A stretch of DNA of 64,000 nt from Bugula neritina (taxonomy: Eukaryota > Animalia > Bryozoa). The translations under genes were made by a program, and so were the position numbers. Under the pieces are notes generated by a model. That model searched no databases, was not told the DNA's origin, and saw only the letters and a list, made by a program, of their open reading frames with translations. This document shows positions 2,433 through 60,598 of the stretch, one piece after another. The stretch is from contig OZ037773.1 of the NCBI GenBank assembly GCA_964035545.1, positions 1-64,000 on the forward strand, read 5' to 3'. Position 1 is the first letter of the stretch, and every line of letters begins with the position of its first letter.

Positions 2433-2435
<3 letters not shown>

Positions 2436-3410: not shown

Positions 3411-3419
3411 GTCTAACAT

Positions 3420-9700: not shown

Positions 9701-10041
9701 ATTCTTTAAGTAAGCAATATGTGTGTCTGTTGCCTTCTGAATCATTGATTTTAATTATCTAAAACTTGCTTAGTCTGTGACTTGGTTTGCTTTGACTTGC
9801 TGTTACCTCAACATGACTCTGGTCACACTGCTCTCTGTTGTACACACCAATTCATCAGTGCTCATTTGGTAGGCAACTTCATACAATATAATAATAGCAT
9901 TAGCTTTCATAAATTTCTTTTTTTAGCATTAATTTCTTCCATTTTTAAAGTTTTTTCGCTGGCAGGTTAATTAGCTATGGTATATCTCAGTTTATAAGAT
10001 TGTATTTATAATGTTTACTATACTTTGTTGTTTTTAGGAAA

Positions 10042-10099
10042 ATGAAGTTTCTCTGGATAACTATTTTCAAAGTATTGCTAGCATCTAGCTACACACTTG
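10042..10099 (+). pseudogene. Signal-peptide exon of truncated Ig-gene copy A (MKFLWITIFKVLLASSYTL-G)
   Basis: tttttag acceptor, ATG at 10042, phase-1 donor GTGAGT at 10100; near-identical to 33445-33502. No Ig exons follow in copy A. Confidence 0.7.
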
Positions 10100-10475
10100 G
10101 TGAGTTAATACTTCTAAAGCTAACATCTCCAGTATTTGTTAACTCTGGTTCTTGATTTTTAATGAATCACTTTAATGACACCTTTATTTTTTCAGATATG
10201 ATTCTTATGCTCACACAACTGTGACTAATGAAATACCTTGTTTCAACTTGTAATGTTTGAGAAATTCTAATGTAGCTGTTGGCTCGTTTAGCAGTTGTTT
10301 TCTGTTGTGTTTTTACACCTGCAGAGGCTCTCAATAAATAAAACAAGTTACTTGAAGACACTAAAAAAGACTCTACTTGGTTTTAAAAGAGTCATTTCTG
10401 TTTTTGTTGCCTTTTCTTGCAGTAGATGATGTCATAGGTCATGCAGTATTCCCAATTTTAATCTATTTATAGTAT

Positions 10476-10754
10476 TGTAGTGAGTACGTAATACGCGCGT
10501 CCCCTAAGTCCCCTTAGCCAATAAGAGTGCGTCATGTGATAACTCCCAGCGATGTGTAGAGTAGTAGAGAGTAGAGTAGTAGAATAGTAAAGATGTAGTG
10601 TTTTTTTTAATCCGTGTGCTTTTATATCTCTTTATTGTATTTAGTAGTAAATAAACCTCGTCTAATCTTATTGAAAACTTTTTTATTGATGTGGATACAT
10701 AAACTATAATTACAAGCCAGGAACTCACGCACAGTAATTGCACAAATTACTACA
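10476..10754 (+). repeat. E1 5' LTR
   Basis: tgtagtgagt...ttactaca, repeated at 17807. Confidence 0.95.
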
Positions 10755-10755
10755 G

Positions 10756-10773
10756 TGGTGGCAGCGGTGGGAT
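10756..10773 (+). promoter_or_regulatory. E1 primer-binding site (tRNA-Leu type)
   Basis: TGGTGGCAGCGGTGGGAT is complementary to the 3' end of animal tRNA-Leu(AAG/UAG), ...AUCCCACCGCUGCCACCA. Confidence 0.85.
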
Positions 10774-10816
10774 TACTAGCTACTATATGAAGACAATGGG
10801 AAAGTATTAGAACATC

Positions 10817-11818
10817 ATGGCCGAAAGTGCAGTGTCAACTGAAGAATGTGAGCGAGACATTATCATAAACCCTCTCGAGGCCGGAGAGGAGGCATATAGG
10901 AATACATTAGTGGCTCCCGTATTCACGGGCTTTGAAGATGTTGAACAATTTATTCGGGAATTCCGTGAAGTTGCAGTCATTACAAGATGGCCGCCAAGAG
11001 TAGCCCTGATGAAGTTACAAATGGCACTGACGGAAGAAGCCAAGCCGTACGGGTGGGGACCTAGCGTAGACGGGATCATTGCTACGCTACGGGCCCGTTT
11101 TGGCATACCTGTCGCCGACGCCAAGTTTCGTTTGCAAGGACTGCTCCACAAAACATGTACACCACTACCGGATCACGCTACTCTGGTGCAGAGACTGGCA
11201 CGGATCGCGTATAGCGATCTGCCAGAAACATACAGACGGCGCTATACATTCGAGGCCTTTGTACAATCCCTCAACAATTTGAACTTCCATCACCAGTTAC
11301 AAGCAAAGGGAGTAACCACGATCGAGGCTGCAATCCAAGAAAGCAAAGCTTAACTAAGAGCCGAGCAACTCTATAAAGCGGGAGAGACTATTCCACAGAC
11401 CCCTGGAGAACCCGACCACCCGGTCCGAATAGCGACCGCTACCGCTAGCCCTCCTGTGGAGATAGAGGTCGACCGCTTGATGACTAAACTGGGACAGTTG
11501 GTGGCAACCATGACATACAACAACCCAAGAGGATACAAGAGACCAGCAGTGAAACACCCCAGACCCACTATACGTTGCTGGAAATGCGGCACCAGGGGAC
11601 ACCGCCGCTCAAGCTGCCCACGACTCAAGAAGCAGCAGAAACCCCAGACCCCCCGGAGGCCCCCAGAGCTCCGCGGGCCCAAGCAGAGAAGAAAACGGGG
11701 TGGATACCACCAGGAGTCCGTACCGATCCAGCGGTACGTCCCCCCACCAGTGGCAGACACCTCGTTGAACCAGCCAATCAGGACGGCCACGAGAACCCTT
11801 CTCTCTACCTCTCACTAA
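10817..11818 (+). pseudogene. gag: E1 gag with in-frame TAA at 11351-53
   Basis: Homologous to E3 gag; CCHC knuckle CWKCGTRGHRRSSC. Confidence 0.9.
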
Positions 11819-11840
11819 CCGCTTCGGTCCGCTACCAGAA

Positions 11841-14800
11841 ATGGAGCCGACCAGCGAGGCCCCTCAGGGCATCGGAGGGGATCAGTACACCTCTCCGCAA
11901 GGAAAATCTCACTGGCCCCGCAAACCGCGGAACAAACGGGCACAGCCCCGATCGGCCGAGACCGAGCACGCTGGGGGAGAACGGGTACAACCTCACGGAG
12001 GTAGCTACTTCTTGCCAGGGAAGGTAGCTGGCAAAGCTGTCATTTTTCTGCTAGACTCCGGGTGTACCACTAATCTCCTCAGCTGTCAGGTCTTCGACAC
12101 CCTCCCCCCTAGGGAGAGGGGAGCCTTAGCTCCCTATACCGGGGAATCGGGCACCCTAGCTGACGGGTCACGGATTCCTTTCTACGGTATCATAGAGCTG
12201 ACTGGACGCGTCCGCTACCAGGCTATCCAAGAAACCTTCGTCATCAGCCAACTCGAAGAGGATGCTATACTGGGGATGCCGTTCTTAAAGAGACACGGGT
12301 GCCGTATGGACTTTAGCAAGTCAGCCATGCTAATGGCCGGCAGGGAACTCGCCTGTGTCGACAAGTTCGGTCGTCCCCTAGCGGGAGGCGTGCAGGTAGT
12401 ACGGAACTGTACTATACCCGGCCGCTCCCGGGCGACCGTTCACTCCAGAGTGAACAATAGCCAACTCTCGTGGTTAGGGGTTGTCGAAGGTGCGCACGCA
12501 AGAATCCAACTCGCCAGCAGTCTTAACCGGCTGACTGACCGAAGAGAGATCTTGGTGCAGTTTGTCAACCCCTTCTCCGAAGCGGTACAATTACCGTCAG
12601 GATCCATGCTGGGCCGCTTCCACTCCATCCAGGAGGAGGATATAGAGCCGTCGCTGGGAGCTGCGACGGAAGGTCCCCAACAGAGCCCGTCAGTAAGGCG
12701 GGGGATCGTCCCACCACACGTCCAAGAGCTATACCAGGCAGCGTGTGACGGCTGCGCGGGCAACGTGGAACGCCAGGCCATGGCTTAGTTGCTACGTGAC
12801 TATAGCGACGTGTTCAGCAGCGGGGACCATGACGTCGGCCTGACCTCGGCCGTCCGTCATGAGATACTACTGGGTGCAGGAACTACTCCTATTCGACAGC
12901 CCACTCGGAGGCTGGGACCCGAGAAGGGGAAGGAGGTCAGCCAACAAGTCCGGGATCTTTTGGACCGCGGCCTCATAGAGCCAGCACATAGTGCGTGGAG
13001 CTCGCCGGTCGTCCTGGTCCGAAAGAAAGACGGCAGTTGGCGGTTCTGTGTGGATTATCGCAAACTCGATAGCAAAACCAAACAGGACGCCTACCCCTTA
13101 CCCAGGATCGACGAATCTCTGGATGCCTTAGCCGTCAGCAAGTACTTCAGTACGCTAGACTTGTTGAGCGGCTACTTGCAGGTCCTCCTCAGTCCCGACG
13201 CCCAGGAGAAAGCGGCGTTCATCACGTGGGACAGCTTATGGAAGTGGAAAGTCCTACCCTTTGAACTGACTTCTGCCCCCGCCACATTCCAGAGGCTCAT
13301 GGAACAGGTCCTCAGCGGGCTCCATTGGAAGACACTGCTGATCTACCTCGATGATGTCATCGTGATCTCCCCAGACTTTCAGACACACATCAGTCGTCTG
13401 CGGGAGGTCTTCGATCGACTCAGAGGTGCCAATCTGAAGCTCAAACCCTCCAAGTGCGCCCTCTTGCAGCCAGAGGAGAAGTACCTGGAGCACGTCGTCG
13501 GCCGTCACGGTGTGGCAGCGGACCCTGAAAAGGTACGAGCTATAGAAGATTGGGTCACCCCCCAGGATTTGACCGGGCTACGGGCTTTCCTGGGGTTGGT
13601 AGGGTATTACCGGCAATACATACCAGACTTTGCGAGGGTAGCGCAGCCGTTGAATCGGCTCACCTGGCAGTGGACTCCCGTCGAACAGAGAGCGTTCGAC
13701 TGCCTCAAGGGCCGCCTACTAGAGGCCCCTATCTTAGCCTACCCAGACCCTGCCCTGGAGTAAATCCTAGATACTGACGCCAGTGACCAAAACGTCGGCG
13801 CTGTGCTGTCTCAGGTGCAGGAGGGCCGCGAAGTAGTCGTGGCCTATTACAGCAAGTCTCTCTCGCCCACCGAACAAAATTACTACACTACCCGAAAGGA
13901 GCTGCTGGCAGCAATCAAGTCGGTGAAGCATTTTAGACCTTATCTATACGGCAGGAAGTTCCGCTTGCGGACCGACCACGCCTCCTTGATTTGGTTGTGC
14001 AAGAGAGCAGAATCGTTCAGCCAAGTTGCCCGATGGCTCGAGGTCCTGGCCGAGTTCTCTTACCGGATTGAGCATCGGCCCGATAAGAAGCACGGCAATG
14101 CTGACGGACTGAGCCGGCGGCCGGACGAGGGGTGCAAACAGTGCCTCAACATCGAAAAAAGGAATGGGGGTCCCCCAAAATTCGAATTGCGGGCACTGGA
14201 CCACCCTGGAAAAGAGTATGACTGGGACCAGGGTCAACTCCTACAGAAGGCCACTACGCCCCCGGAGACTATCCAAAGCCTCCGTGCCAATCCTGTCTTG
14301 GCTGATAACGTCAGAGAGTTACGAAGATTCCAAAAGAACCTCCCCGGAGTAGTAGCCGACGTGTATCGGGCCAAGAAGGAGGGGCGACGACCCAGCGAAG
14401 AACAACTGCGGCAGGGATGCACCAAGTTACGGTTGTACTGTCAACGTTGGGACTCCCTGCGGATCGGGCCAGATGGTCTGCTGACCATCACAGTGGCCGC
14501 CTACAACAGCCAGTACGGGAGAGAGAGGGTGATCTGCCCAGCCGCCATACACCGGGAGTTAGTATGGGACACCCACAAACAGGCCCACGCCGGGGTAAGC
14601 AGGGTGCTCTCCAAGTTACAGCTCCGGTGGTACTGGCCCGGCATGGAGCGTGATGTACGGCTTAGAGTCAAACAATGCGAAATCTGGCAGGCCAGCAAGC
14701 ATGGCCGTCTCCCTGGCAAAGCGGGGCGGCGTAGGCTATATGCTGGAAGGCCATGGCAGGTGGTAGCTGTTGACCTAGTCGGACCCATACCCCTCACCCC

Positions 14801-16007
14801 CAGAGGAAACAGTTGGATACTAGTATTAACCGACCACTTTACACGGTGGGCAGACGCCCTGGCTATTCCAGATGCGTCCGCCCCGACGGTGGCCAGGGTA
14901 CTAGACCAAAATGTATTCTGCTACCTCGGACTACCCGAACAGATACATTCGGATCAGGGGGCTCAATTCCAGTCTCAACTGTTGAGCGACCTCTGCCGCC
15001 TCTGGGGAGTAAACCAAAGCAGGACCACTCCATACCATCCTTAGGGCAACAGGGTGGTAGAACGCAACAACCGCATGTTGGGCGACGCACTCCGCAGTCT
15101 GCTCCTCGGCCGGGGTCAGGAGGAATGGGATACGGTACTACCGCAAGTCATGCAGGCCTATCGTAGTACACCACACACCAGTACGGGGGAAACCCCTAAC
15201 CTCCTGATGCTTGGTCGAGAGACGCGAGTGCCCGACCACTTCACATACCACATCCCAGAGCAAGACTATACTATCCACGAGTATGCCAGCAAATTGATAG
15301 AGGACCTGAGGGCCGCACATGAAATACTGCGAGTAAAGCAGTGGCAGGTACGGCAGGAGGACTCTCAGGAACCACCCCTCTATCAAACTGGGGACTGGGT
15401 GTGGATGATCAACTACCGTAGGCGTCGAGGACAAGCGGCTAAGCTCCAGCCTAAGTTCGTGGGACCCTACGTAGTAGTTGAGGCGATGCCCAATCATACG
15501 TACAAGTTGGAGCGCTCTGGACAGGTCTCTGTCCAGAATGAAGCCCGCTTGAAACCGTATTGGGCCAGTCCAGGAGCAGCAGGAGCAGGCCCCCCCCCTC
15601 CCCCGTTGTTGGAGCCCAGGAAGCAGACAGCAACGCGCGGGCGGCAACGGCATGGACCAGAATATGAAGTGGTTGTGCCGCGGGAGGAGGACTTGTTGAG
15701 GCAGGAAACGCCACTCCCATCAACGGAAGTGCGCCCACCGCCCCCAATACCAAGTCTACCCCCACCACTTCCGGATCCGCATCCGCGTCCGGAAGTGCAA
15801 AACCCCCCCATGGGAGGGGCTCCATCCGGAGACAACAGCGGAGAGGGAAATGCCATCACCAACGACGGGCCGGAAACACCACAAGTGGAGCAAAATAGCC
15901 CACCAGTGAGTACACCGCCCCGACCAACAACTACACCCTCCTCCCCAGCTAATACGTCACCTCCCCTGGAACGGGGACAGCGTACTAGACAACCCCCACA
16001 TACTTGA
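11841..16007 (+). pseudogene. pol: E1 pol (PR-RT-RNaseH-IN) with stops at 12786, 13761 and 15042
   Basis: LDSG protease, YLDD RT, DTDAS RNase H, DLVGP/HSDQG/VERNN integrase, GPY motif; all fragments lie in one frame. Confidence 0.95.
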
Positions 16008-16279
16008 AAGACTTCGTATGTGACCGCGTTACAAACGGCAGTTACGAAAGTCCAGCTGGGCGCCGTACGGAGGGACTGGCAGCAAAGCGTGGGAGTTGTG
16101 AACACCACGGAAATCTCAACTTTTGCGAAGGCGGAGTAGTAAACAAAACTACTACGCCCGGGGCAAATAGTTCCAGCCGTGCGCAACAACTACGCTGCCC
16201 AGCCTTTTCGTACGCTGACGTTGTCAAAGGCAGACGCATCCAAACTCAATCCACAGACATCTAAGCTTGAACGCTGAGT

Positions 16280-17424
16280 ATGATTACAAATACAGGGTTC
16301 TCAGGTAAGCTTGCCTTGACCTAACATTCCCACTCATGGAATCAGGTCTACCATCAGTTAGTTCTGATTTAATCGCCCTGATTGAATCACAACTACTGGG
16401 GACTGAGTCTTACGTGAAAGGCGACGAGAACATAACAATGGCCGATGATCTACTAGATCGGGAGCTTGACGTTATGTCACTCGGTCAGTCTACACCACAC
16501 GACACAGTCCCTCGAGTGCCATCTAAAAAGATGTATGACTCTCAGACTAGGAACAGTCGGTTGTCATCAGAATTATGGTGTAAAGATCACACTCGATCTA
16601 ACAATAATTCTGCTCTTTTAGATATCACTCCCTCTACTCTTCCCCGTGACACATAACCATCAGAGATGGCTTGGGATGAGGAACCTGCTCCCGTCACACT
16701 GCCAGAAGTACTTTTAAGCCAGTCATGCTGGGTTACCCAAGACACGGAAGCACTTATTCGAGAATCTAAAGGCGATGACCAATGCACCACCTGCCGCTTG
16801 TGCCAACTCCATTTCATCACCCCTCGCCGACTCCCGGTTCACGTCCCCCAACATTATGTCACTACCTTTTTTCCCTGTGGTGAATATAGTTACCACAGGG
16901 ACTACATCCTCCGTCACCAGCGAACCATGGAATGTCACATTGGACATCTCTATGAAGTTGACGAACATTCCTTTCCACACTTCCTTGATCTCATCCGACC
17001 CTTCATATCAGACCCGACTCGCTACGAACGGCTGCGTCAGGAGTTCCCCGCACCCAGGGCCATCACACAAGGACCCTGCCCTAAATCACCCGGATATAAG
17101 AGACCACCCATGCCCCGTTCATCACCCCCCGCACGCACAGTGCCCCACCCCGACTCCATACCCAGAGTCGTGCTACGACGCATCGAAGTGCTACAGCGAT
17201 GGCGTCCCTCTCCTCCCGTCTCCCCCAGGCTTTCCCGTAAACGATGTTGGTCATCTTCGTCTCCCAACCGACACTCTGTCCCCGCCCGGAACCTAAGAGA
17301 AGCGGAAGAACGGATACGGAAACTAGAGAAAGAAGTGCAAAGGTTGGCACCGAGAATCTCTGCCGCCGCATCTGAACTCTGGGCTCTCTCTGCCTCTGTA
17401 GCCCAAATGAAAGGAAGTGCTTGA
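16280..17424 (+). pseudogene. E1 spliced accessory gene (zinc fingers + coiled coil): exons 16280-16304 and 16622-17424; internal TAA at 16654
   Basis: ATG+8 codons+G|GTAAGC ... TCTAAC ... CTTTTAG|AT restores the frame; CRLC-x12-H-x3-H finger; C-terminal heptads. Confidence 0.75.
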
Positions 17425-17795
17425 GACGGCGTCCCCAAACCTCCTTCCCCTACTCGTCCTACCCCCCACTCTTGATGGTACCGCAGGTGGTGCCCCATCT
17501 CAAACTTCTCTCACGCCCGGTGCTAACGAACAATCTCCCAGTGTGACAATCATATTATAGTAACCTACAAGTATACATCTCTTAGCCCTATGGGTCGTTC
17601 ACTTATAAGTGCCTCTCCCGTCAGTGTCATAGTGTGTGTTTATACTGTTATATTTTTTTATATTTTTTTTTACTGTATATAGTTATGTTTCTTTCTTTTA
17701 TGTACCATACGCTCTCTCAGTCTTATAGTTTTTTTGTAATATTTTTGTATTAGTACTAACTGTATCTGTGTTATCAGAAAGTAGGTCTTTCTGCT

Positions 17796-17806
17796 GGGGG
17801 GGGCGG
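17796..17806 (+). promoter_or_regulatory. E1 polypurine tract
   Basis: G-run plus CGG directly before the 3' LTR. Confidence 0.85.
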
Positions 17807-18083
17807 TGTAGTGAGTACGTGATACGCGCGTCCCCCAAGTCTCCTTAGCCAATAAGAGCGCGTCATGTGATAACCCCCAGCGATGTGTAGAGTAGTAGAG
17901 AAAGCGTACTAGAATAGTAAAGATGTAGTGTTTTTTTAATCCGTGTGCTTTTATATCTCTTTATTGTATTTAGTAGTAAATAAACCTTGTCTAATCTTAT
18001 TAAAAACTCCTTTATTGATGTGGATACATAAACTATAATTACAAGCTAGGAACTCACGCACAGTAATTGCACAAATTACTACA
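17807..18083 (+). repeat. E1 3' LTR
   Basis: Direct repeat of 10476-10754. Confidence 0.95.
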
Positions 18084-23649: not shown

Positions 23650-25030
23650 TTGTATATATATTGTGGTAATAAATCACGGCTTCGGCCTCTTCCGTTAAGC
23701 AACTAACTTGAGCACGTTCTCTCTTTTTCACAATAGCTGAAATAATATCACAAAACAACACAAAACATGGTGCCCCAAGTATAATTATTATTATTATTAC
23801 ACTGAAACAACATGGAGCAATTACTAGCACCAAAACCATTAGCAGATGGACCAAATCTACCTTAGGAATAGAAGATTTTTTCAACTGCCACATCGAAGGA
23901 TACAGCCGAAGGCAAAGTGAAAACTGCATACCTACTTAGAACTATCGGTCGCCGAGGCAACCAAATATACGAATATTTCAACTGAACTGACAACAATGAC
24001 AAGACTGACTACAACAAAGTAGTGACGCAATTTGATGCCTACTGTAAACCAAGAATAAACTTAGTGGCTAAGACTCACTCACTACTGACTTGTAAGCAAG
24101 GAAATAAAACTATTGACAAATTTTTGACTGAACTACATACCATTGCAGGACTATGTGACTTATAAGACATGTACAAACGACTGATACTACAAGCACTGAT
24201 ACTGGGAATTGAAAGTGACAAGATTAAAAAGAAACTGTTTGACTTGACTGACTCTGACTTTGACAAAGCAATTGAGCTCTGTAGACGAGAAGAAGCATCA
24301 GCTATTGACTACAAGACTATGACTAATGATAACACTTATGGAATCGAACAAGTGAACTTGGTGAAACATAGACCTCCGACTCATCAATATCACTCTAATT
24401 ACACTCGTAACACTGATAAACACAGAGAACAGCTTTCACACACTCGCTCTCAGCCCGACGTCAGAAAATCAGTTGGTGCTTCTAGGTGTGGAAACTGTGG
24501 AGGCAACCATTCACCTCGAGCTTGCCCAGCATATGGGAAACAGTGCAATCATTGCAAGAAGTTTAACCATTTTGCCAAGTACTGCAGGTCACGCATGCAT
24601 CATCATTGCAGCTCAACCGAAACAGCCAATCAAGTCACCTGGAATTACTCTTCAGACAGTGGCTCTCAAAATGTTAGTACTATATCTACTACAGTATGGG
24701 ATCGTAAACTATTAGCGACTCTCACTGCTAAGCAGGCAGATACTACTTATGACATTGAATTTCAATTTGACACTGGTGCATCATGCAATACTTTGAATAC
24801 TGTTGACTACGGCAAGCTAGGGAGACCGAAACTTACACCAATTGACACTGTACTAACTTTTTATGACCAGAGCAAGTGTGCACCACTAGGGTGGACACGT
24901 ATACAGATACTAAACAAGCAAGGACGTTACACTACATTAAAATTCCTAGTTGTGGAGACCACCCAACACAGCTTGCTGTCATGGAAATCATGTTTGCACC
25001 TGGACTTATTACAAATGCCCAGCACCAAAG
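23650..25030 (+). mobile_element. 5' remnant of a Mag-like Gypsy element (LTR end, PBS-like motif, decayed gag, protease)
   Basis: ...aaaaca|TGGTGCCCCAAGT at 23768; gag from ATG 23812 with stops; twin knuckles CGNCGGNH...C and CNHCKKFNHFAKYC; FDTGASCN protease in the same frame (24169-25041). Confidence 0.75.
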
Positions 25031-25158
25031 GCGAGATATAAAAATAAACAATACTGACCCAGACTCGCGGGACGACCCTGTCCACCCCCTCCGCCCACTT
25101 GTTGGGAGTGCGGGATGCCAGGACATGTGAGAAGGCACTGCCCTAAGGGACAGAAGCC

Positions 25159-28200: not shown

Positions 28201-30480
28201 ACCCATAAGCAGGCTCATGCTGGAGTCAGTCGGGTCATCAGGTGTCTGCGGCTGCGTTGGTATTGGCCCGGAATGACTCGGGACGTACGACTGCGGGTAC
28301 GGCAATGCGAGGTCTGCCAAGCTAGCAAGCATGGCCGCCCCACGGAAACCACTGGTCGACGCCGGCTGTACGCTGGTCGACCGTGGCAAGTAGTGGCGGT
28401 AGACCTCGTCGGGCCTATGCCGTTATCCGCCAGAGGGAATACCTGGATACTGGTGCTCACGGACCACTTTACCCGGTGGGCGGATGCTCTGGCTATTCCA
28501 GACGCAACCGCCCCCACGGTGGCCCGGACCCTGGACCAACATGTGTTCTGTTACCTCGGTTTGCCCGAGCAGATACATACGGACCAGGGTGCCCAGTTCC
28601 AGTCCCAGCTCATGGGAGACCTCTGCCGGATATGGGGGGTGAACCAGAGTCGGACCACCCCATATCACCCGCAAGGGAACGGAGTCGTCGAGCGGAACAG
28701 GATGTTGGGTGACGCGCTCCGGAGCCTGCTACTTGGTCGAGGTCAGGAAGAATGGGACGTGGTGCTGCCGCAGATCATGCGGGCTTACCGCAGCACACCA
28801 CACTCCGCCACGCAGGAGACCCCAAACTTCCTGATGCTAGGCCGAGAGACGCGGGTCCCGAAACACCTGACGTACCATGTTCCTGCCCCCGAGTCACCGG
28901 TACACGAGTATGTGGAGGGTCTGATGGACATCATGGGCAAAGCTCATGATGCGCTGCGTACCCAGCAGTGGCAGACCCGCACAGAGGACTCGGAGGAGCC
29001 CCCGTTGTACCAAGTGGGAGACTGGGTTTGGATGGTGAGCTACCGTAGGCGACGCGGACAGTCGGCTAAGCTTCAGCCCAAGTTCGTCGGCCCCTACTGT
29101 GTAGTGGAGGTGCTGCCCAACCACACGTACCGTGTGGAGCGCTCTGGACAGATCTCTGTCCAGAGCGAGCAGCGCCTCAAACCTTACCATGCCAGCCCAG
29201 ACGCGGTGGGTCAGGCTCCACCCCTCCTGGAGCCCCACCATCAGCCCAACCGTCGAGGACGGGCCACCCAGCCCCGAGAGGTGGAGATTATGGTCCCCAG
29301 GGAGACGGACCAGGAGCAGGCCGACTTGATAGAGCAGCTGGAGCGGCAGCAGAGAGCGGAGCGGGAACAGGAACAGCGACAAGCCCTTAGATCACAACCC
29401 TTTTCGGGGGAGGACACCCCCACCCCTGTACGGGGTGAAGACGGGGACCCCCCTACTAGGGCAGCCCAGGAGCCACCAACACCACCAGTGCCTGTTCCAC
29501 TTGAGAGGAGCCAGCGGCCAAGAAGACCTCCCAGGTACCTGGCAGACTATGCTGTAGGGCACCTGGAGTGGCCCCCTCCTGAGGACGACCCCCCCCACAC
29601 TGACTATCACCCCATCTTGGTTGGAAATTCCCTCCATCACCCCAGAGAATTCCACCAAGAAAAAGAAATGGCCGACCGAATTTCGGAAGACACTCGATCA
29701 CGCGAGTTGTCTTTTCGAAATCCGGGGGAAATTCCCACGAGCCACGCGACTCGGGCTTTAGCAGGTAAAACTTCTGAAGCACGAGGTTCGGCCATTTCTC
29801 ATTCTGATTTCACACAGCTCGCACGGCAGTTACAGCTCAAGCTAAATTCTGATTCTAATACTCATTTTGATTTTAACACTGTTCTCCAAACGCTATCAGC
29901 AGCTATGGGAATTACTTTACCAGACACGCAATCAGGTATTTCTTCTAGATTAGATCCTCCAGTTACGGAGTCTAGTCAAACTAAAGTAGACTGGTCTTTA
30001 CTAGACTTACTTGGTTCTGATTTCTTAGAACCGGAGGCCGAGATGGATCTTGGAGATGACTCTGCCATTGACACTTTGTTAAATCACGACGTAGGCTCAG
30101 TCAATTTCTGCGATACACCTCGGCCCTCGGTTTTTAATTTAACTCCATACACACCTGTGCCGAATTTCGGCGATAGTGAGACCGGCTTTTCACAGCCTCT
30201 ACTATCTATTCTAGAGGAGCGTATGGACGTTGAAGAGGCCAGTCGGTCCGACTCCCCTCTCCCACCGGCCCTTGCTTCGGCTTCTACCAGCCAGCAGGCC
30301 GCAACCTCCTCCACAGAGGTGTGTTCCGCCATCGTTAGTGGCCCTGACCCCAAACCGGTCGAGCTCCAGCTCACGGCCGGGGAGGAGCAGGGCATCCTAC
30401 ACGGCGACCACCTGCCAGCAGAAGAAGACAACTCCCCAATACTGGCCCTGCCTCAGGCCCTGGTCGCCCGCCAGTATTAG
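25180..30480 (+). pseudogene. pol: E2 pol with TAG at 28042, YLDD>YLDV, and a long open C-terminal extension
   Basis: LDTG protease, RT, RNase H, HHCC/DDE integrase; 25180-28044 and 28114-30480 share a frame. Confidence 0.93.
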
Positions 30481-31140
30481 GTGACTGGACCCACCAATCT
30501 TAAGATTGGTGAAGCTTGCGGTGAGCCGGGCAACCGCATCTGCCATGAGTGTAAGAGGAAGTTCTCCTCTGCACGGCGGTTGCGTGTACACGCCCCACAG
30601 CACTACATCAACGTGTTTTGCCCGTGTGGGGAGTTCTCCTACCAGAGAGACTATGTGTTGAGACATCAACGCATAGCTCACTGCCACACGGGCTACACGT
30701 TTGCTGTAGACCAGGCCTCCTTTCCCAAGTTTCGGGACCTGGTGCTGCCACACGTGGCGGATTCCCATAAACGGGCTGCTCTCGCCCTGGGATTCCCCGC
30801 GTGTAGGCCTGTTCGGGAAGAAGAAGGGGAGCCCGCCGCGACACCCCAACCGGCAGCCACCCAGCCACTTCGGGTCATGCTGGCACGAGTCGGACCAGGC
30901 GCCAGGACCGATTCATCGGACCTGGGCCCCCGACCCTCGGCGGCGGGCGAGAAGCAGACGCACCGCCAGCGACGTCCTACCCATGGTGCCACCGACCGCT
31001 CCAGACACCAGACGTCGGCCCAGTTAGCAGAGGAGGTACAACATCTCCGCCGGCAGCTCCGCAGGTATGAGGAAGAGCTGGGGCAACTCCGGAGACGTGT
31101 TAGCCGCCTGGAGCGGGGCCGATCTGGAGACCGCCGCTGA
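30481..31140 (+). pseudogene. E2 zinc-finger/coiled-coil accessory ORF (upstream TAG aligns to a conserved Trp)
   Basis: CHEC-x12-H-x3-H; CPC-x12-H; LAEEVQHLRRQLRRYEEELGQLRRRVSRL. Confidence 0.8.
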
Positions 31141-51971: not shown

Positions 51972-52277
51972 TGTTATGTTTTTCAGTTTTAGGGTTGATA
52001 TGCTATCCAGAGAGTCTATTTATCTAGTATAGAACTGCACCAGGCTAAGTCGAGTGAACGAGTATATTTTATACACAACTATACATTATAAAAACACGAT
52101 ACATTATTTCTAACAAGTTACACATCTAATCTATTTCACACTCTAGCTTCGACTGAGTTAGCAGCGGGAAACTACAATTGCTGCTAACTATCAACTACGC
52201 TAATTGGCTATCCATTGTTCCGGGTCAATTACGCGACCCCACATGTTGTGCTGCTGGTAGTTCCACGAACCACCACA
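51972..52277 (-). repeat. E3 3' LTR
   Basis: Preceded on the minus strand by PPT GGTGGGGGCGG (52278-88). Confidence 0.95.
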
Positions 52278-52563
52278 CCGCCCCCACCAGCAGAAAGCCA
52301 TCTTTCTGATATATATAAAAAAAACATTCAATAGTAATTGTATACATCAGTGGACAAAAAAAATACATAATATACAGGAAGAGACATAATAATAGACAGA
52401 GTCATGGTAGCGATCCGTTGCATACAATTGGCCAGCTGTAGATAGACGAGGAATACTAGCTAGCTGTGGTAGTAGACAAGGATTAACCTGTCTAGCAGTT
52501 AAGCATTTGCACGAGTTTGGTTCCTCACCAAATGTGGAGTTGCGGAGTATTCTGGGTAGCATA

Positions 52564-53640
52564 CTAGAGTCCTTGTTGGGCACGCCGGTGCTTGGCTTGG
52601 CATGTACGCAGTTTCCGTTTCATACGGCATACGGATCCCTTCAGCTGGAAGAGTCCTGTGGTAGTGTTAAGTAGATCTGGTGCCAGCTGGGTGAACTCTT
52701 CTTGTAGTCGTAGGAGGCGTTCTTCTACTGTAGCTAGTCGTACTGGGTCTGGGGACGGTGTCCGTCTGCGGCGTAAGGGTGGACTGGGGGACCTGGTCCG
52801 TCTCTTCGCCGGGGTAGGGGAGATCTCTCCTTCTTCTGGATATGTAGTTTCCTCGGGGGTGTATGTAATTGGAGGGCGGTCAGACACCAACGGAGATTGT
52901 TGTCGGGCGTTGTCTAACACACGTTGGAACCCCGAGGATAGAACTGCTAATAGCATGGCCTTCTTTACCAGAGGTCGTATATATGTGAGGAACTCCGGGT
53001 ACAGCTTAGCGTCGACCACATAGTTTTCTCCAGGGAAACAGCCCGCCGCTCTGTGTCTGGTGACGGGGTAGGGATACACATCATTGTACCCGCAGGGGCA
53101 GAAGGTCAGTAGGAGATGAGCATTGACGTGTAGTTTAAGGGAGCGGTGGGAGGCGCAATCTTCACCACAGATCTGGCATCTCGTCCGTCCTCTGGACCCC
53201 CAGGCTGTTTCTATTTCTTCTTCGGTTTGTGGAGACACCCACCGCCAACGGCGGCGTAGTGGCTCAGGCCGGTCACCACTAGCATAGTCCTCCGGATACG
53301 GAGCGGGAAGTGTTCTATCCCGTACCCTGGTTGTAGCGGGTCGAGTGTAATCTGAAAAAGTTTCAACAGTGTTAGTACAGTACACTGCTGTGTTGTCAGC
53401 TTGAACAGCTTGGCAACTCCTAATTCAGTTACCTCGTAGAGATTAATGATAGTGAATAGTCAGATAGAACCGTATTGCAATGAGATTATAAAAATCTCTA
53501 AGTCAAACTGAGTTCTTACTACGGTATTTCACTAACCTATCTCCAGCTCGATTGACTCAGTGAGTCAGAGCTGAGCGATGCAATCTAGTTTCGTATTAAG
53601 ATATAGTTAACTCACCCCACGATCTGTTGTCGTAAGACAT
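52564..53640 (-). CDS. E3 spliced accessory protein (270 aa): C2H2 + atypical finger, basic/SP region, coiled coil; exons 53640-53616 and 53351-52564
   Basis: ATGTCTTACGACAACAGATCGTGGG|GTGAGT; TACTAAC branch point (53371-77); TTTTCAG|AT. The spliced 813 nt are open; the unspliced frame has a stop. Confidence 0.8.
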
Positions 53641-53893
53641 ACTGAATATGTGAAATGGTTTGAACTACTGCTTAGAAACACGTCTACTCTTGACTACATC
53701 AGCGTATGAAAAGATCGAGCAACGTGGTTGGGGTGCGTGATTAAGACTTTGTGCACCCGGCGGATGAATTTTGTTTCTACTTCCGTCGATACAAAAGTTG
53801 ATATTTCCGTGGTGTTGACAACTCCCACATTTGCTCGATTCTTTTCTCGTACGGTTTTCCCCTAGACTTTCATGTGTGCCGCTTTTAACGCAG

Positions 53894-56800
53894 TCACATA
53901 CGAAGTCCTTCAAGTATGCGGGGGGTTGCCTCGTACGCTGTCCCCTTTCTAGGGGGGGGTGACACGCTTGCCGGTTCGTTAGTAGGGGCCTCTAATGGCG
54001 TCTCTACTTCACCGTCAGCAGTCACCTCTTCTTGTTCTCCGGATGCAGCCCCTCCCTCCGTGGGGTTTTGCACTTCCGGAACCGGCTCGGTTTCTGGAAG
54101 TGATGGAATCAGACTTGGCGGTGGCGGACACGCTTCTGTTGGCAGAAGCTGCCGCTCCTCTCTCACCAAGTTTTCTTCCCGCGGTATGACCACTTCGTAT
54201 TCAGGTCCATGCCGCCGTCGCCCGCGCGTTGTTGTCTGCCTTCTGGGCTCTAACAACGGGGGGGCTTCTCCCACCCCGCCGGGGCTAGCCCAATACGGTT
54301 TCAAGCGAGACTCATTCTGGATAGACACCTGTCCTGAGCGCTCAATCTTGTACGTATGATTGGGCATAGCCTCGACGACCACGTAGGGGCCTACGAACTT
54401 AGGCTTCAGCTTATCAGCCTGTCCGCGGCGCCTACGGTAATTGACCATCCACACCTTATCTCCTCTTTGATAGAGGGGTGGTTCATCGGAATCTTCGTGC
54501 CGCACCTTCCACTGCTGTTGACGCAGTATCTCGTGTGCGGCCTTCATCCGTTCCACTAGTTCACTGGCATACTCGTGGATTGAGTTATCCTGCTCTGGAA
54601 CGTGATAGGTGAGATGGTCAGGGACACGAGTCTCTCTCCCGAGCATCAAGAGGTTTGGGGTCTCACCAGTACTGGTGTGTGGGGTGCTACGGTATGCACG
54701 CATGACTTGCGGCAACACCGTATCCCATTCCTCTTGACCTCGTCCAAGGAGGAGACTCCGGAGTGCATCACCTAGCATCCGGTTGTTGCGCTCCACCACC
54801 CCGTTACCTTGGGGGTGGTAGGGGGTGGTCCTGCTCTGATTTACTCCCCAGAGGTGGCAAAGGTCGCTCATCAGTTGAGACTGGAATTGAGCGCCTTGAT
54901 CAGAGTGTATCTGTTCGGGAAGCCCAAAATAACAGAATACATGTTGGTCTAGTGCCCTGGCCACTGTTGGGGCTGATGCATCTGGGATAGCCAGAGCATC
55001 CGCCCACCTAGTAAAGTGGTCGGTTAGTACTAGGATCCAATTATTGCCTCTGGGGGTCAGGGGCATGGGTCCGACCAGGTCTACAGCGACTACTTGCCAG
55101 GGCCTGCCAGCATATAGCCTCCGCCGTCCTGCTTCACCAGGGGGGCGGCTATGCTTACTGGCCTGGCAGATCTCACACTGTTTGACTCTGAGCCGGACGT
55201 CACGCTCCATCTGCGGCCAATACCACCGGAGTCGTAATTTGGATATCACTCGCTTGACCCCTGCGTGGGCCTGCTTGTGAGTATCCCAAATCAACTCACG
55301 GCGGATGGCTGTGGGGCAGACTACCCTCTTCCTTTCCGGGTGTCTGCCGCTGGCAGCTAGAGAGATGGTTAGCAAACCATCCTGCCCGATCCGCAGCGAG
55401 TCCCAACGCTGACAGTATAGCCGGAACTCGGCGCATCCCTGTCTTATGCGTTCCTCGCTGGGTCGTCGCCCTTCCCGTTTGGCCCGGTATATGTCTGCCA
55501 CGACTCCAGGCAGTTCTTCTTGGAGCTTCTTCAGCTCTCGAACATTACCGGCCAGTACAGGGTTGGCGCGGAGGTTTTGCACATCCTCCGGGGACTCATC
55601 AACTCTCTGCCTGAGTTGACCTTGATCCCAGTCAAACGGTGCTCCGTGATGAGCCAGCGTCTCCAACTCGCATCGTGGGGGACCTCCATCCCTCCTCTCG
55701 ATGTTGAGACACTGTTTGCAACCTCCGTCAGGTCGGCGACTCAACCCATCCGCATTGCTGTGTCTCTTGCCCGGTCGATGTTCGATCCGGTACGAGAATT
55801 CAGCTAGGATTTCGAGCCACCGGGCGACCTGACTAGAGGGCTCTGCTCTCCTGCACAACCAGATCAGCGAGGCATGATCCGTACGCAGCCGGAACTTCCT
55901 GCCATATAGGTATGGTCTGAAGTGCTTCACTGACTTGATTACTGCCAGCAGTTCCTTGCGGGTAGTGCAGTAATTTCGTTCAGCGGGAGAGAGAGACTTG
56001 CTGTAGTAGGCTACTACTACTTCTCGGCCTTCCTGCACTTGTGACAGCACAGCGCCAACATTCTGGTCACTGGCGTCCGTGTCTAGGATGTACTCCAGAG
56101 TGGGGTCTGGGTAGGCCAAGATGGGCGCCGTTAGGAGGCAGCCCTTGAGGCGGTCGAACGCTTCTTGTTCGACTGGGGTCCACTGCCACGTCACTCCCTT
56201 TGCGGTAAGCCGGTTTAAAGGCTGGGCTATGCCCGCAAAGTCTGGTATGTATTGCCTGTAATACCCTACCAGCCCCAAGAAAGCCCGGAGTCCGGTCAAG
56301 TCTTGGGGGGTGACCCAGTCTTCTACTGCCCGTACCTTTTCGGGATCCGTTGCCACGCCGTTTCGACCGACAACGTGCCCCAGGTACTTGACCTCCGGCT
56401 GCAACAGAGCGCACTTGGAAGGTTTGAGCTTAAGACCGGCACGTCGGAGTCTCTCGAAAACCTCCTGCAGACGACTGACATGTGTCTCGAAGTCTGGAGA
56501 GATTACGATGACATCATCGAGGTAGACCAGCAGTGTCTTCCAATGGAGTCCGCTAAGGACTTGTTCCATCAGCCTCTGGAAGGTGGCTGGGGCGGAGGTT
56601 AACCCGAAGGGCAGCACCTTCCACTTCCACAAACCGTCCCGTGTGATAAACGCCGCTTTCTCTTGGGCGTCGGGACTCAGAGGAACCTGCCAATAGCCGC
56701 TTAGCAAGTCTAACGTACTGAAGTACTTGCTGCCGGCTAGGGCGTCCAATGACTCGTCAATACGAGGTAGAGGGTAGGCGTCCTGTATGGTTACGCTATT

Positions 56801-58294
56801 GAGTTTGCGGTAGTCCACACAGAACCGCCAACTGCCGTCTTTCTTCCGGACCAGTACGACTGGCGAGCTCCACGCACTATGGGCGGGCTCTATCAGTCCC
56901 CGGTCCAGAAGATCCCGTACTTGTCGGCTAACCTCCTTCTCTTTCTCCGGCCCCAGCCTGCGTGTGGGCTGCCGGACAGGGACTGTCCCTGCAGTCAGCG
57001 GTATTTCGTGTCTGACAATTCCAGTCAGTCCCACGTCATGCTCTCCGCTGCTGAACACATCACCGTAGTCGCGTAGTAACTTGGCCATAGCCTGGCGCTC
57101 TCTGTTACTCGCGCAGCCGCCACTGGCTGTTTCGTATAACTCCCGGAGATGTGTTGGGACTGCCCCTCGTCCCTGAATAGGGTGTCGAGAGAGTGCCTCC
57201 GTCGCATCACCCAGCGACGGGCCTACGTCTCCCTCCTGAACAGAGTGAAAACGGCCCAGCATCGACCCAGCCGGGAGCTTGATAGGCTCGGTAAAGGGGT
57301 TGACGCACTGCACTAAGATCTCCCCTTGTTCAGTCAGCTGATTCAGACTGCTGGCAAGTTGGATCTTTTCGTGCGCGCCTTCAACCACCCCGAGTCCAGA
57401 GATCCGGCTACTATTCACCCTGCAGTGAATGGTAGCCCGGGAGCGGCCTGGTATGGTACGGTTGCGTACCACTTGCACACCTCCCACTAAAGGGCAGCCG
57501 AACTTGTCGACGCAGGCGAGTTCCCGCCCGGACATCATCATTGCAGATCTGCTAAAATCTATGTGACATCCGTGCCGTTTAAGGAACGGCATCCCGAGGA
57601 TAGCATCCTCCTTGAGCTGACTGACGATGAACGTCTCTTGGATCGTTTGATCGCGGACTCGTCCCGTCAGCTCAATTATACCATAGAAGGGAAGGCATGA
57701 CCCGTCAGCTAGGGTGCCGTACTCCCCTTCGTATGCTTCCATCTCGCCCCTGACCCTAGCACTGAGGGTGTCGAAGAGTTGGCGGCTTAAGAGGTTTGTG
57801 GTACAGCCCGAATCAATGAGAAAAGTAACAGCTTTGCCTTCCAGTTTACCGGGCAAGAAATAGCTGTTCCCATGGGGCTGCACCTGAACTCTCCCTTCAG
57901 GCCTTACTCTCGCAGGGAGTACCTCCCTCGCTTTGGGTCGCGAAGGAGGTCTCTTGGGGCGGTGATAGGTAGGCCTCGGGGGTGCCGAGGCTAGATTCTC
58001 AGCTACCTTTGCGTGCTCCCATCCAGATTCTTGGACTTGTAGCCCTGTGAATCTGTTGTGAAGGGGCATAGAAAAGGCAGCCGCGGGGCGAAGCCCCTTG
58101 CTGGTCCGTCGTGGCTGTTGCCACTGTTGGTTGCCAGTACGCGGTACCCGTCTGGGTGACCTGCGTTTCTTCTTCCCTAGAGGTTTCGTCGGCCCGCGGA
58201 AGGTGGGAACATCTGCGGGCCGCGGTAGTTTAACCCCTGATTTAGGAAGGGACAATATCGGCGGAAATGTCCTTGATTTCCGCACTCCCAGCAA
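53894..58294 (-). CDS. pol: E3 pol polyprotein (PR-RT-RNaseH-IN), expressed by -1 frameshift
   Basis: 1466-aa ORF; IDSG, YLDD, DTDAS, HHCC, DDE and GPY motifs. Confidence 0.97.
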   Translation of the reverse strand: MLGVRKSRTFPPILSLPKSGVKLPRPADVPTFRGPTKPLGKKKRRSPRRVPRTGNQQWQQPRRTSKGLRPAAAFSMPLHNRFTGLQVQESGWEHAKVAENLASAPPRPTYHRPKRPPSRPKAREVLPARVRPEGRVQVQPHGNSYFLPGKLEGKAVTFLIDSGCTTNLLSRQLFDTLSARVRGEMEAYEGEYGTLADGSCLPFYGIIELTGRVRDQTIQETFIVSQLKEDAILGMPFLKRHGCHIDFSRSAMMMSGRELACVDKFGCPLVGGVQVVRNRTIPGRSRATIHCRVNSSRISGLGVVEGAHEKIQLASSLNQLTEQGEILVQCVNPFTEPIKLPAGSMLGRFHSVQEGDVGPSLGDATEALSRHPIQGRGAVPTHLRELYETASGGCASNRERQAMAKLLRDYGDVFSSGEHDVGLTGIVRHEIPLTAGTVPVRQPTRRLGPEKEKEVSRQVRDLLDRGLIEPAHSAWSSPVVLVRKKDGSWRFCVDYRKLNSVTIQDAYPLPRIDESLDALAGSKYFSTLDLLSGYWQVPLSPDAQEKAAFITRDGLWKWKVLPFGLTSAPATFQRLMEQVLSGLHWKTLLVYLDDVIVISPDFETHVSRLQEVFERLRRAGLKLKPSKCALLQPEVKYLGHVVGRNGVATDPEKVRAVEDWVTPQDLTGLRAFLGLVGYYRQYIPDFAGIAQPLNRLTAKGVTWQWTPVEQEAFDRLKGCLLTAPILAYPDPTLEYILDTDASDQNVGAVLSQVQEGREVVVAYYSKSLSPAERNYCTTRKELLAVIKSVKHFRPYLYGRKFRLRTDHASLIWLCRRAEPSSQVARWLEILAEFSYRIEHRPGKRHSNADGLSRRPDGGCKQCLNIERRDGGPPRCELETLAHHGAPFDWDQGQLRQRVDESPEDVQNLRANPVLAGNVRELKKLQEELPGVVADIYRAKREGRRPSEERIRQGCAEFRLYCQRWDSLRIGQDGLLTISLAASGRHPERKRVVCPTAIRRELIWDTHKQAHAGVKRVISKLRLRWYWPQMERDVRLRVKQCEICQASKHSRPPGEAGRRRLYAGRPWQVVAVDLVGPMPLTPRGNNWILVLTDHFTRWADALAIPDASAPTVARALDQHVFCYFGLPEQIHSDQGAQFQSQLMSDLCHLWGVNQSRTTPYHPQGNGVVERNNRMLGDALRSLLLGRGQEEWDTVLPQVMRAYRSTPHTSTGETPNLLMLGRETRVPDHLTYHVPEQDNSIHEYASELVERMKAAHEILRQQQWKVRHEDSDEPPLYQRGDKVWMVNYRRRRGQADKLKPKFVGPYVVVEAMPNHTYKIERSGQVSIQNESRLKPYWASPGGVGEAPPLLEPRRQTTTRGRRRHGPEYEVVIPREENLVREERQLLPTEACPPPPSLIPSLPETEPVPEVQNPTEGGAASGEQEEVTADGEVETPLEAPTNEPASVSPPPRKGTAYEATPRILEGLRM

Positions 58295-59136
58295 AAACTG
58301 ACTGTTTCTCCCTGTGGCGGCGCCGATGGCCGCATGGGCTCAGGGGCGGTACTCACTGGGTTTTGTGGTGTCAGTGTTGCTATCAGCTTGGCTAGCATGT
58401 CCGTCAGTTGAGTGACTTTTGATGCCGTCGCCAACTGGGACACGGCAGCCGCGGCGGGGGTTTCCTCCCCTTGTCCCGCGGCCGTGTCTGCGCGGTCTAT
58501 CTCCACTTGGCGGGAGCTTCCGCGACTTTTATGCATTTGGTTAGCTAGGAGGTAAGCTTCCCCCTCAGTCAGAGCATCTTCAACGGTGGTGACTCCCCTA
58601 GCTAGAAACTGGTGGTGGAGACCCAGATCGTCGACAGATGCTATGAAAGCGTCGAGGGTGTACCTCTCGCGGTTGACTGGGGGCAAGTCGCTGTACGCGA
58701 TCTGTGCCAGCTTCATGACCGCGGCGGCATGCTCCCGCAGCGGGGTGCGGGGATCACGCCGCAACCTCTGCAATCGGGACCTGGCATCTGTAGCAGAGAG
58801 GCCAAAGCGGGCCCGCAGAGAAGCAAAGATATTATCAATGTCTACGCCCAGCCCATAGGGCTTGGCTTTGTCCATCAATGCCATTCTAAGCTTCAACAGG
58901 GCCACCCTAGGGGGCCACTGAGCGACGTCCATTACGTCGCTAAACTCTTGGATAAATTGTTCCACCTCCTCTTCACCCGTGAAGGTGGGCGCCTTTAACC
59001 TGTAGCGGTCTTCAGCTAGTTCTCGCGGAACCCTTCGCTCTTCTACTACATGGTTAACAGGCATTGTCTCTACAGCATTGTCTCTACGCTCACCTTCGAT
59101 TGCCGGTGGTTGAGTTCCAGCATTTTCAGTCTCCAT
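58177..59136 (-). CDS. gag: E3 gag
   Basis: 319 aa; CWECGNQGHFRRYC knuckle; ATG just after the PBS. Confidence 0.95.
   Translation of the reverse strand: METENAGTQPPAIEGERRDNAVETMPVNHVVEERRVPRELAEDRYRLKAPTFTGEEEVEQFIQEFSDVMDVAQWPPRVALLKLRMALMDKAKPYGLGVDIDNIFASLRARFGLSATDARSRLQRLRRDPRTPLREHAAAVMKLAQIAYSDLPPVNRERYTLDAFIASVDDLGLHHQFLARGVTTVEDALTEGEAYLLANQMHKSRGSSRQVEIDRADTAAGQGEETPAAAAVSQLATASKVTQLTDMLAKLIATLTPQNPVSTAPEPMRPSAPPQGETVSFCWECGNQGHFRRYCPFLNQGLNYRGPQMFPPSAGRRNL
58190..58234 (-). promoter_or_regulatory. E3 gag-pol -1 frameshift signal
   Basis: G_TTA_AAC in the gag frame (58234-58228), 5-nt spacer, stem CGGCCCGC/GCGGGCCG. Confidence 0.75.
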
Positions 59137-59148
59137 CTTGGATGCACT

Positions 59149-59166
59149 ATCCCACCGCTGCCACCA
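59149..59166 (-). promoter_or_regulatory. E3 primer-binding site (tRNA-Leu type)
   Basis: Same TGGTGGCAGCGGTGGGAT as E1. Confidence 0.85.
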
Positions 59167-59167
59167 C

Positions 59168-59473
59168 TGTTATGTTTTTCAGTTTTAGGGTTGATATGCT
59201 ATCCAGAGAGTCTATTTATCTAGTATAGAACTGCACCAGGCTAAGTCGAGTGAACGAGTATATTTTATACACAACTATACATTATAAAAACACGATACAT
59301 TATTTCTAACAAGTTACACATCTAATCTATTTCACACTCTAGCTTCGACTGAGTTAGCAGCGGGAAACTACAATTGCTGCTAACTATCAACTACGCTAAT
59401 TGGCTATCCATTGTTCCGGGTCAATTACGCGACCCCACATGTTGTGCTGCTGGTAGTTCCACGAACCACCACA
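59168..59473 (-). repeat. E3 5' LTR
   Basis: Repeat of 51972-52277. Confidence 0.95.
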
Positions 59474-60119: not shown

Positions 60120-60598
60120 GGCACGTTTCAGCCGATTTATAGACTCCTGGAGGGACTTCAACTCGCTGCTTTTACTCTGAGAGCCAACAGATGCACTTCC
60201 CTCTCGAGCTCGTTGGTCCTTACTTCGACTTCCCGCAGGTTACGGGCCAGTGGAGAGGAACGGGAGGGGAACTGATGAGGTCGATGTCTCCGGATCTTTA
60301 CAACATAATTCTAGTGACAATCGACTGTTACTAGTCTGAGAGTCACAACTTTTATAAGGCACTCCAGAGACCAGTTGATTACGTGTAGACTGACCAAGAA
60401 TGACAGTGTCTAGCTCGAGATCTAACAGATCGTCGGCCATTACTGCGTCCTCATCGTCATTCACGTTAAACGTGGTCCCCAGTAACTCTGATTCAATCCG
60501 ACTGATTAGTTCAGAATTAACTGGCATCGGGCCTGTTTCCATAGATAGTAACACAAGACTTATACAGGCTTACCTGTGAACTTGGTATTGATCGACAT
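60120..60598 (-). pseudogene. E4 accessory-gene remnant: mini-exon 60598-60574, acidic ORF and coiled coil; zinc fingers deleted
   Basis: ATGTCGATCAATACCAAGTTCACAG|GTAAGC; ORF 60240-60554 matches E1 16336-16656; ARNLREVEVRTNELEREV matches the E1 zipper. Confidence 0.7.

Follow-up and report, generated by a model that had tools for sequence, protein, structure and literature searches.

A zinc-finger gene with a 25-nt first exon and a partly coding intron in Ty3/Gypsy retrotransposons of Bugula neritina: a candidate two-form regulator

The window, a 64-kb stretch of Bugula neritina DNA, has an AT-rich eukaryotic background that is interrupted by four GC-rich islands, the related LTR retrotransposons E1 to E4. 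E1 (10476..18083, forward strand) is a Ty3/Gypsy element whose pol carries in-frame stops; its LTRs (10476-10754 and 17807-18083) are 94.7% alike, it has a 4-bp target duplication, and its primer binding site (PBS) starts at 10756. E3 (51972..59473, reverse strand) has identical 306-nt LTRs and a 4-bp target duplication; it contains gag and a pol in which Pfam identifies the protease-RT-RNase H-integrase order of the Ty3/Gypsy type, with the frame broken close to the 3′ end. Paired LTRs (TG..CA), target duplication, PBS, and polypurine tract are all present in both E1 and E3, and the PBS of these elements presumably resembles a leucine tRNA primer site. E2 and E4 are partial elements. The sole gene after pol is the one for a zinc-finger protein, and there is no match to an env family.

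Four family members are packed into 54 kb of the window, and the insertion point of E3 lies about 14 nt past the end of the 3′ LTR of E4 (59474-59490). A gag/protease-like frame of a different element (24166-25041) adjoins the truncated 5′ end of E2. E1 is inserted into a dispersed repeat (8438-10475) that is also found at 31800-33869, and degenerate 10-bp tandem arrays and long AT and GTGC microsatellites occur at positions 1-4000 and 46900-50700. TAGCCAAT (CCAAT box) recurs in each of the LTRs of E1, E3, and E4, at a distance of 40-70 nt from the 5′ end.

The finger gene of E1 opens with a 25-nt mini-exon recognized from the sequence (16280..16304, forward strand), followed by a 317-nt phase-1 GT-AG intron (16305..16621) with a branch-like CTAAC at 16598, and by exon 2 (16622..17424), which encodes twin zinc fingers (~16693-17070), a basic Ser/Pro/Arg stretch, and a coiled coil. 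On the reverse strand, E3 has the same arrangement: a 25-nt mini-exon (53616..53640) with the sole in-frame ATG ahead of the fingers, a 264-nt phase-1 intron (53352..53615) with a TACTAAC branch at 53377-53371, and an exon 2 (52564..53351) that is open for 261 codons through the zinc fingers, basic stretch, and coiled coil. E4, also on the reverse strand, retains a 25-nt mini-exon, likewise recognized from the sequence (60574..60598), and the 5′ part of the intron (60293..60573), which includes an acidic open frame from an ATG at 60542; its branch point, acceptor, and fingers are gone by deletion (equivalent to ~16589-17262 of E1). Each mini-exon spans 25 nt from the ATG to a GT(A/G)AG donor and is directly preceded by AGT. 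An earlier, sequence-only reading of this DNA had located the same three exons, their donors, the preceding AGT, the two acceptors ending at 16621 and 53352 with their branch points, and the intron lengths of 317 and 264 nt, all of which are confirmed here. Its count of ATG plus eight codons plus G needs correction, as the exon comprises eight codons including the ATG, plus one G. The divergence that it reported among the mini-exons is real: E1 and E3 have only 9/24 bases in common, and exon length and phase agree. Across both strands of the 64 kb, the pattern AGT-ATG-N21-G-GT(A/G)AG, which was derived from the sites themselves, has three matches, and these are exactly the mini-exons. The distance from CTAAC to the intron end is 19 nt in both E1 and E3, and their acceptors are the most pyrimidine-rich YAG of their regions. 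GC content is 0.38-0.44 in the introns versus 0.54-0.63 in exon 2. The proposed joining of both acceptors into the zinc-finger frame stands in so far as each acceptor is in phase 1, but the E1 copy has a stop at 16654-16656, after the acceptor and ahead of the fingers, which breaks its spliced frame. When unspliced, the mini-exon is an upstream ORF of 12-14 codons in E1 and E4, with 14 codons and an end at 16324 in E1.

E2 lies on the forward strand and is organized differently. Its candidate first exon of 97 nt (29668..29764) begins at the nearest upstream in-frame ATG and is in frame with the pol tail. It is followed by a 450-nt phase-1 intron candidate (29765..30214) that is wholly in frame and encodes an acidic region, and then by exon 2 (30215..31140) with zinc fingers and a coiled coil. 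The sequence-only reading had regarded the E2 sites as a compatible phase-1 pair. The phase is indeed correct, yet the GTAAAA donor is weak, no clear branch motif is seen, the intron is in frame, and E2 lacks the 25-nt exon. The E2 copy also carries a stop ahead of the fingers (30478-30480), which is absent in 9/9 E2 relatives.

Relatives of the accessory proteins were collected from JGI, ENA, and Logan records, giving 72 for E3 (including the window's own), 80 for E1, and 9 for E2. The 326 proteins stored for analysis are related copies rather than independent events, and the search approach favors open frames. The acceptor could be located in 75 E1-like proteins, and in 75/75 of them the residues there are compatible with YA|G, the one ahead of the junction being Leu, Ser, Val, or Ile; in a control on 34 full-length rows, 2/94 other column pairs are compatible throughout. 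E2-like proteins that extend across the acceptor are compatible in 6/6 cases, and the similarity among E3-like proteins starts at the acceptor Asp. Contigs of read run X2 that align to the E3 intron (n = 105) contain 19 substitution sites, counting only sites away from contig ends, and none of these falls in the ATG, donor hexamer, branch, or acceptor. Three of four changes in the E3 mini-exon are synonymous, and six one-base indels are located in the intron, with none in the exons. The donor is less uniform. In P0240 and P0196, the two residues at this point are incompatible with GT, two X2 contigs carry a non-GT donor, and 1/3 of the E2-like proteins that cross the donor is incompatible. Judged mostly at the protein level, the conservation of the GT-AG pair and of phase among copies that the sequence-only reading proposed as a check holds at the acceptor in the 75 E1-like proteins and extends to the donor in E1, E3, and E4 with these exceptions.

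For the DNA of relatives, a viral-contig search was without match and a first metagenome scan confirmed 0/80 stretches; one locus from a search of genome contigs (L004) proved to be a bacterial chance match. A second metagenome scan yielded three loci, L001 (1393-1560), L002, and L003, of a related element that lacks the accessory gene, although the same conserved tail motif closes its pol. In these loci, the pol end directly abuts the polypurine tract and LTR.

One protein carries what would be the spliced product. P0130 consists of Met plus seven residues, followed by the acceptor Asp and the exon-2 residues of its intron-bearing cluster mate P0164, to which it is 86% identical over 137 aa. 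Scored with five mini-exon peptides (E1, E4, P0240, P0306, and P0259), the first eight residues of P0130 reach 18.8, the best of 71,163 8-mers in a background without the four read-through proteins; the runner-up scores 13.6. P0130 is one of the 326 stored proteins. It is incomplete and located on a 7886-nt contig, which points to a genomic copy without the intron; it may instead stem from a transcript contig, or from a deletion whose short matching ends lay at donor and acceptor. RNA run X1 (share 0.10) has 20 contigs on 51900-60700 and none on the E3 intron, the X2 contigs include no joined form at E3, and no junction is present among the joints listed in X1 or X2. The junction that the sequence-only reading anticipated in reads thus has an equivalent at the protein level in the relative P0130 and no counterpart among those joints.

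The same data bear on the claim that the mini-exon supplies the start of the gene. P0130, the acceptor-compatible residues, and the E3 subfamily, in which no Met precedes the fingers other than that of the mini-exon (3/3), all support it. It is not the sole possible start, however, as a Met lies between acceptor and fingers in 21/24 E3-like and 61/64 E1-like proteins, and the mini-exon is therefore strictly required only in E3's own subfamily. Overall, we consider it quite likely that the intron is spliced in vivo.

A feature that the sequence-only reading overlooked is that the E1/E4 intron is itself coding, and that the E2 intron is homologous to it. An ATG located 31 nt into the intron (16336 in E1 and 60542 in E4) opens a frame in phase with the fingers. 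In E1, this frame encodes an acidic region of 95 codons (16336..16620, forward strand) that is predicted to be disordered. The distance from this Met to the acceptor Asp is exactly 95 residues, without gaps, in 33 relatives that are 56-100% identical, and the first 50 residues contain 23% D+E and 1% K+R. Profile comparison aligns the acidic region of E1/E4 with that encoded by the E2-lineage intron (P 94.8, E 5e-8), and 5/5 fragments beat all 200 of their own shuffles. The intron frames of E1 and E4 have no stops in 83 codons, and their dN/dS of 0.56 (0.33-0.99), from one pair, indicates weak selection. Since dS is 0.50 in the intron frame, far below the 1.24 of integrase, non-protein constraint or recombination contributes as well. 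Over the larger interval of 16001-16621 versus 60290-60869, E1/E4 synonymous divergence is 0.50-0.65 for pol tail plus intron and 1.24 for integrase, which may reflect RNA-level signals or recombination. A shorter, 41-nt intron ending at 16345 in E1 (60533 in E4, in frame with the acidic region) was rejected, as its tract is weak and it is incompatible in ~5/33 relatives.

The lineages differ in how the acidic region is entered. The E2 lineage keeps a single frame through first exon, intron, and exon 2. In the lineage of P0306, P0259, P0240, and P0196, the two ATGs are 57 nt apart and that of the mini-exon shares the frame of the acidic region, whereas in E1 and E4 the distance is 56 nt and the mini-exon ATG is out of frame. 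Besides P0130, four proteins contain a mini-exon-like peptide that is read through into the acidic region. In P0240 and P0196 a GT donor is impossible, and they may make the long form only. We note several other arrangements among the stored proteins: P0188 has pol tail, acidic region, and fingers in one continuous frame, P0323 (1145 aa) combines a Gypsy protease with the finger domain and has no RT match, and P0225 and P0195 each match the profile in two stretches. We consider it probable that the coding intron, when retained, gives a second protein form in the E1/E4 and E2 lineages. The argument that a sense-strand intron can persist only if genomic RNA stays unspliced is accepted here, and, because the intron is coding in these lineages, retention matters for the protein as well as for genome copying.

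The intron of E3 is non-coding, with stops in all three frames and one-base indels among copies. Its alignment to the E1/E4 intron (51-53%) is no better than that of shuffles (45-58%). A quick tree of the finger domain (76/78 alignment rows plus E2 and E3; SH-aLRT support only) places the E3-like rows on a long branch with the E1-like rows (support 94) and the E2-like rows outside. The simplest reading of this topology is that the acidic region was lost in the E3 line, although a module swap is possible. E3 and E1 are 36% identical in the finger domain and 86% identical in integrase; this divergence, with the long branch, may represent fast change or a module swap.

The contrast between the two kinds of intron bears on whether the gene is spliced at all. 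The gene could instead be a single unspliced frame, opened by the ATG inside the intron or by a Met further downstream; the resemblance to splice signals would then be a by-product of protein coding, and P0130 a chance deletion. Protein constraint could indeed set the ends of the coding introns of E1, E4, and E2, most relatives have the downstream Met, and no junction is listed in X1, which has no contig on the intron, or in X2. The E3 intron, however, is non-coding and cannot be aligned to E1/E4, and still keeps exon length, phase, and branch distance; its subfamily has no alternative Met (3/3), and P0130 falls exactly on both boundaries. We regard an unspliced gene as very improbable.

The finger protein belongs to a large family (281 clusters at 50% identity, E up to 0.001). 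Pfam assigns the finger domain to no family above cut-off, the best being zf-C2H2 with 19.7 versus 25.2 bits. Eight zinc ligands are nearly invariant in 78 sequences (C34, C37, H50, H54, C60, C62, and H75 are found in at least 90% of rows), and the second finger is atypical (CxC). AlphaFold models the twin fingers confidently as a domain of ~125 residues (pLDDT 93), followed by a disordered basic Ser/Pro/Arg stretch and a C-terminal helix of 50 residues; the intron-encoded part is disordered. Among solved structures, C2H2 transcription factors give the best sequence matches, mainly across the first finger. The closest fold match of the finger domain, ZNF524, is weak (Z 3.2, rmsd 3.4, 55 aligned), and Foldseek returns no match to this domain with E under 0.001. 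Fold searches with the full model identify only generic coiled coils and weak finger rows, the top Foldseek row being a dsRNA-binding zinc-finger protein with an E of only 2; such absence of a match does not equate to a new fold. Complex prediction for two copies of the coiled coil gives a score of 0.21 against a mark of 0.32, and thus no clear answer.

Transcription activators are usually built in this way, with an acidic, leucine-rich disordered region combined with tandem C2H2-like fingers. The accessory product looks nuclear. By domain make-up and analogy, a DNA-binding transcription regulator is a plausible assignment, though at somewhat less than even odds. An anti-silencing or other role seems rather doubtful, and a regulator of RNA export or splicing unlikely.

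In the mechanism that we favor, with a probability of roughly 0.6, the host spliceosome joins the 25-nt first exon of the zinc-finger gene after pol to the finger exon, RNA that retains the intron yields a longer acidic form, and the two forms act as activator and brake. Full-length genomic RNA would mostly stay unspliced, and for that reason the intron would survive reverse transcription; occasional reverse transcription of a spliced RNA would account for P0130. A separate accessory mRNA would arise from an internal promoter or from an upstream splice off the LTR leader. Once spliced, it would encode the mini-exon residues, fingers, and coiled coil without an acidic domain, and with the intron kept it would encode the acidic domain, twin zinc fingers, and coiled coil. 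Where the frames agree (the E2 lineage and that of P0306, P0259, P0240, and P0196), translation of the long form would start at the mini-exon ATG; where they disagree (E1 and E4), it would use the ATG within the intron, which a short upstream ORF precedes. The E3 lineage, without the acidic region, would make the spliced form only. The long and short forms are predicted to act as activator and brake on the element's own expression, a role favored because of the domain make-up.

The splice could also be real and the protein an RNA-level regulator, like Cer1 CERV or Rev, that exports genomic RNA or blocks its splicing, with the acidic region secondary. Elements with usable splice sites need a mechanism of this kind, and the Arg-rich basic stretch, the coiled coil, and the top Foldseek row would suit it. 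There is also a precedent in a Ty3/Gypsy element: the available text on Cer1 of Caenorhabditis elegans describes CERV as a non-env regulator made from spliced RNA, with splice sites that persist in the genomic RNA as they do here (PMC10309623). According to the same text, CERV's N-terminal half is common to Gag, and the protein has G and M (C4 finger) domains (PMC10309623), unlike the mini-exon form. As far as that account goes, the present gene further differs in lying wholly 3′ of pol, in starting from an exon of its own, and in combining C2H2-like fingers with a coding intron. An acidic disordered region with tandem fingers is, moreover, typical of transcription activators, and the best matches are DNA-binding factors. 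We therefore retain the activator and brake model and judge an RNA-level role quite unlikely.

The origin of the accessory mRNA admits a further alternative. Its main form could be a singly spliced LTR transcript, in which a phase-1 donor in gag is joined to the same acceptor to give a Gag-leader plus finger protein, with the mini-exon as a minor or ancestral start. Candidate phase-1 donor-like GTGAGC sites that could join the finger exon in frame lie early in gag of both E1 (10848..10853, forward strand, 31 nt after the gag ATG) and E3 (59088..59093, reverse strand, 43 nt after the gag ATG), and in the available parts of PMC4402516 and PMC2585583, Tor3a and gypsy env likewise have donors close to where gag begins. 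GT(A/G)AG is common, however, with 5 occurrences in E1 and 11 in E3. In the E3-like protein P0024, the acceptor Asp directly follows 14 unrelated residues of which Glu is the last, as an E3 leader would yield; this hints at another junction form, but the match of these residues to the E3 gag leader is not significant (shuffle p 0.17; 92/1374 M-start 14-mers score equally). A Gag leader would also leave the conserved 25-nt exon and the existence of P0130 unexplained. As the main form it is improbable; as an additional one it can coexist with the mini-exon two-form model. For a splice into the mini-exon itself, no strong acceptor is found upstream (GAG in E1 and E4, CAG in E3). A YAG that follows CTGA(C/T) occupies one aligned position in the pol tails of E1, E3, and E4, at ~16225 (+), 53684 (−), and 60653 (−), and is a weak candidate for an upstream acceptor.

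In HTLV tax, ATG plus G sits in a small upstream exon, a parallel drawn in the sequence-only reading. The small upstream start exon is indeed comparable, as is the protein body in a 3′ exon, but the likeness is anatomical only, there is no env, and an internal promoter such as those of Tor elements and foamy viruses fits equally well. HTLV-1 tax and rex, in the available text, are made from a common doubly spliced LTR transcript, with the small exon far upstream and env as an intron (PMC3185741). Set against that description, the intron of the finger gene spans 264-450 nt and encodes an extra domain of the same protein.

By analogy, the two-form gene works most like foamy virus tas/bet, yet it is not a retrovirus gene; a regulator pair resembling Tas/Bet is our best guess. 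In the available part of the source, foamy unspliced RNA gives a transactivator and spliced RNA an expression-damping protein (PMC13220597). Common to both systems, on that description, are accessory genes at the 3′ end and unspliced and spliced RNAs that give two proteins, here predicted from the frames. Foamy viruses differ in being retroviruses with env and a demonstrated internal promoter, and, as far as that source goes, both predicted forms here would have fingers and coiled coil in common, unlike Tas and Bet. Searches of a viral fold library detect neither a sequence match nor a fold match.

Third genes of metazoan Ty3/Gypsy elements offer other comparisons, and sORF2 of MDG1 is reportedly grouped with their spliced or internally promoted ORF3s. 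The Ogre intron is a sense-strand intron kept in an LTR retrotransposon by alternative splicing. Within the available texts, gypsy env has its start codon supplied by splicing (PMC2585583), Oikopleura Tor env comes from a splice or, in Tor3b/4b, from an internal promoter (PMC4402516), and bdelloid elements carry varied ORF3s (PMC5408684). Like these ORF3s as described there, the finger gene is a third gene after pol with, as we infer, its own mRNA; those products are enzymes or membrane proteins, and it is gag-pol that is spliced out as the intron, whereas here the product looks nuclear and the intron lies inside the third gene. Ty1/Copia elements of Arabidopsis, in the available text, likewise keep a sense-strand intron through alternative splicing of gag (PMC5580714). 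The Copia and Ogre introns are located in or beside gag/protease and set the Gag:Pol ratio; here the intron is in a 3′ finger gene.

A spliced regulator in a Ty3/Gypsy element is already known from CERV; by comparison with these systems, what sets the finger gene apart is an intron inside a third gene that codes for an extra domain. Searches of mostly open-access papers list no description of this finger-gene family, and it may be annotated in Repbase, Dfam, or supplements. Overall, the earlier observation is confirmed with corrections, and its interpretation is partly supported and extended. A short gene, two sharply predicted forms, and a broad family that has no Pfam name make the two-form idea cheap to test.

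Retrotransposons that lack env are usually seen as plain gag-pol elements whose control is left to host factors. Tentatively, and with more doubt than confidence, we propose that a Ty3/Gypsy lineage without env supplies a transcription factor of its own, toggled between activator and dominant brake via retention or splicing of one intron coding the activation domain, so that control of the complex-retrovirus kind (Tas/Bet- or Tax-like) evolved independently; of its sister lineages, some would be fixed for the long form, some for the short form, and some would make both. A precise intron-less copy of the P0130 type, if confirmed, is a natural record of reverse-transcribed, spliced element RNA. 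If the proposal is true, the lineage would provide, beside CERV, a second independent answer to how a retroelement preserves its splice sites although its genome has to be copied in unspliced form, and a self-encoded, alternatively spliced regulator would put it on par with complex retroviruses.
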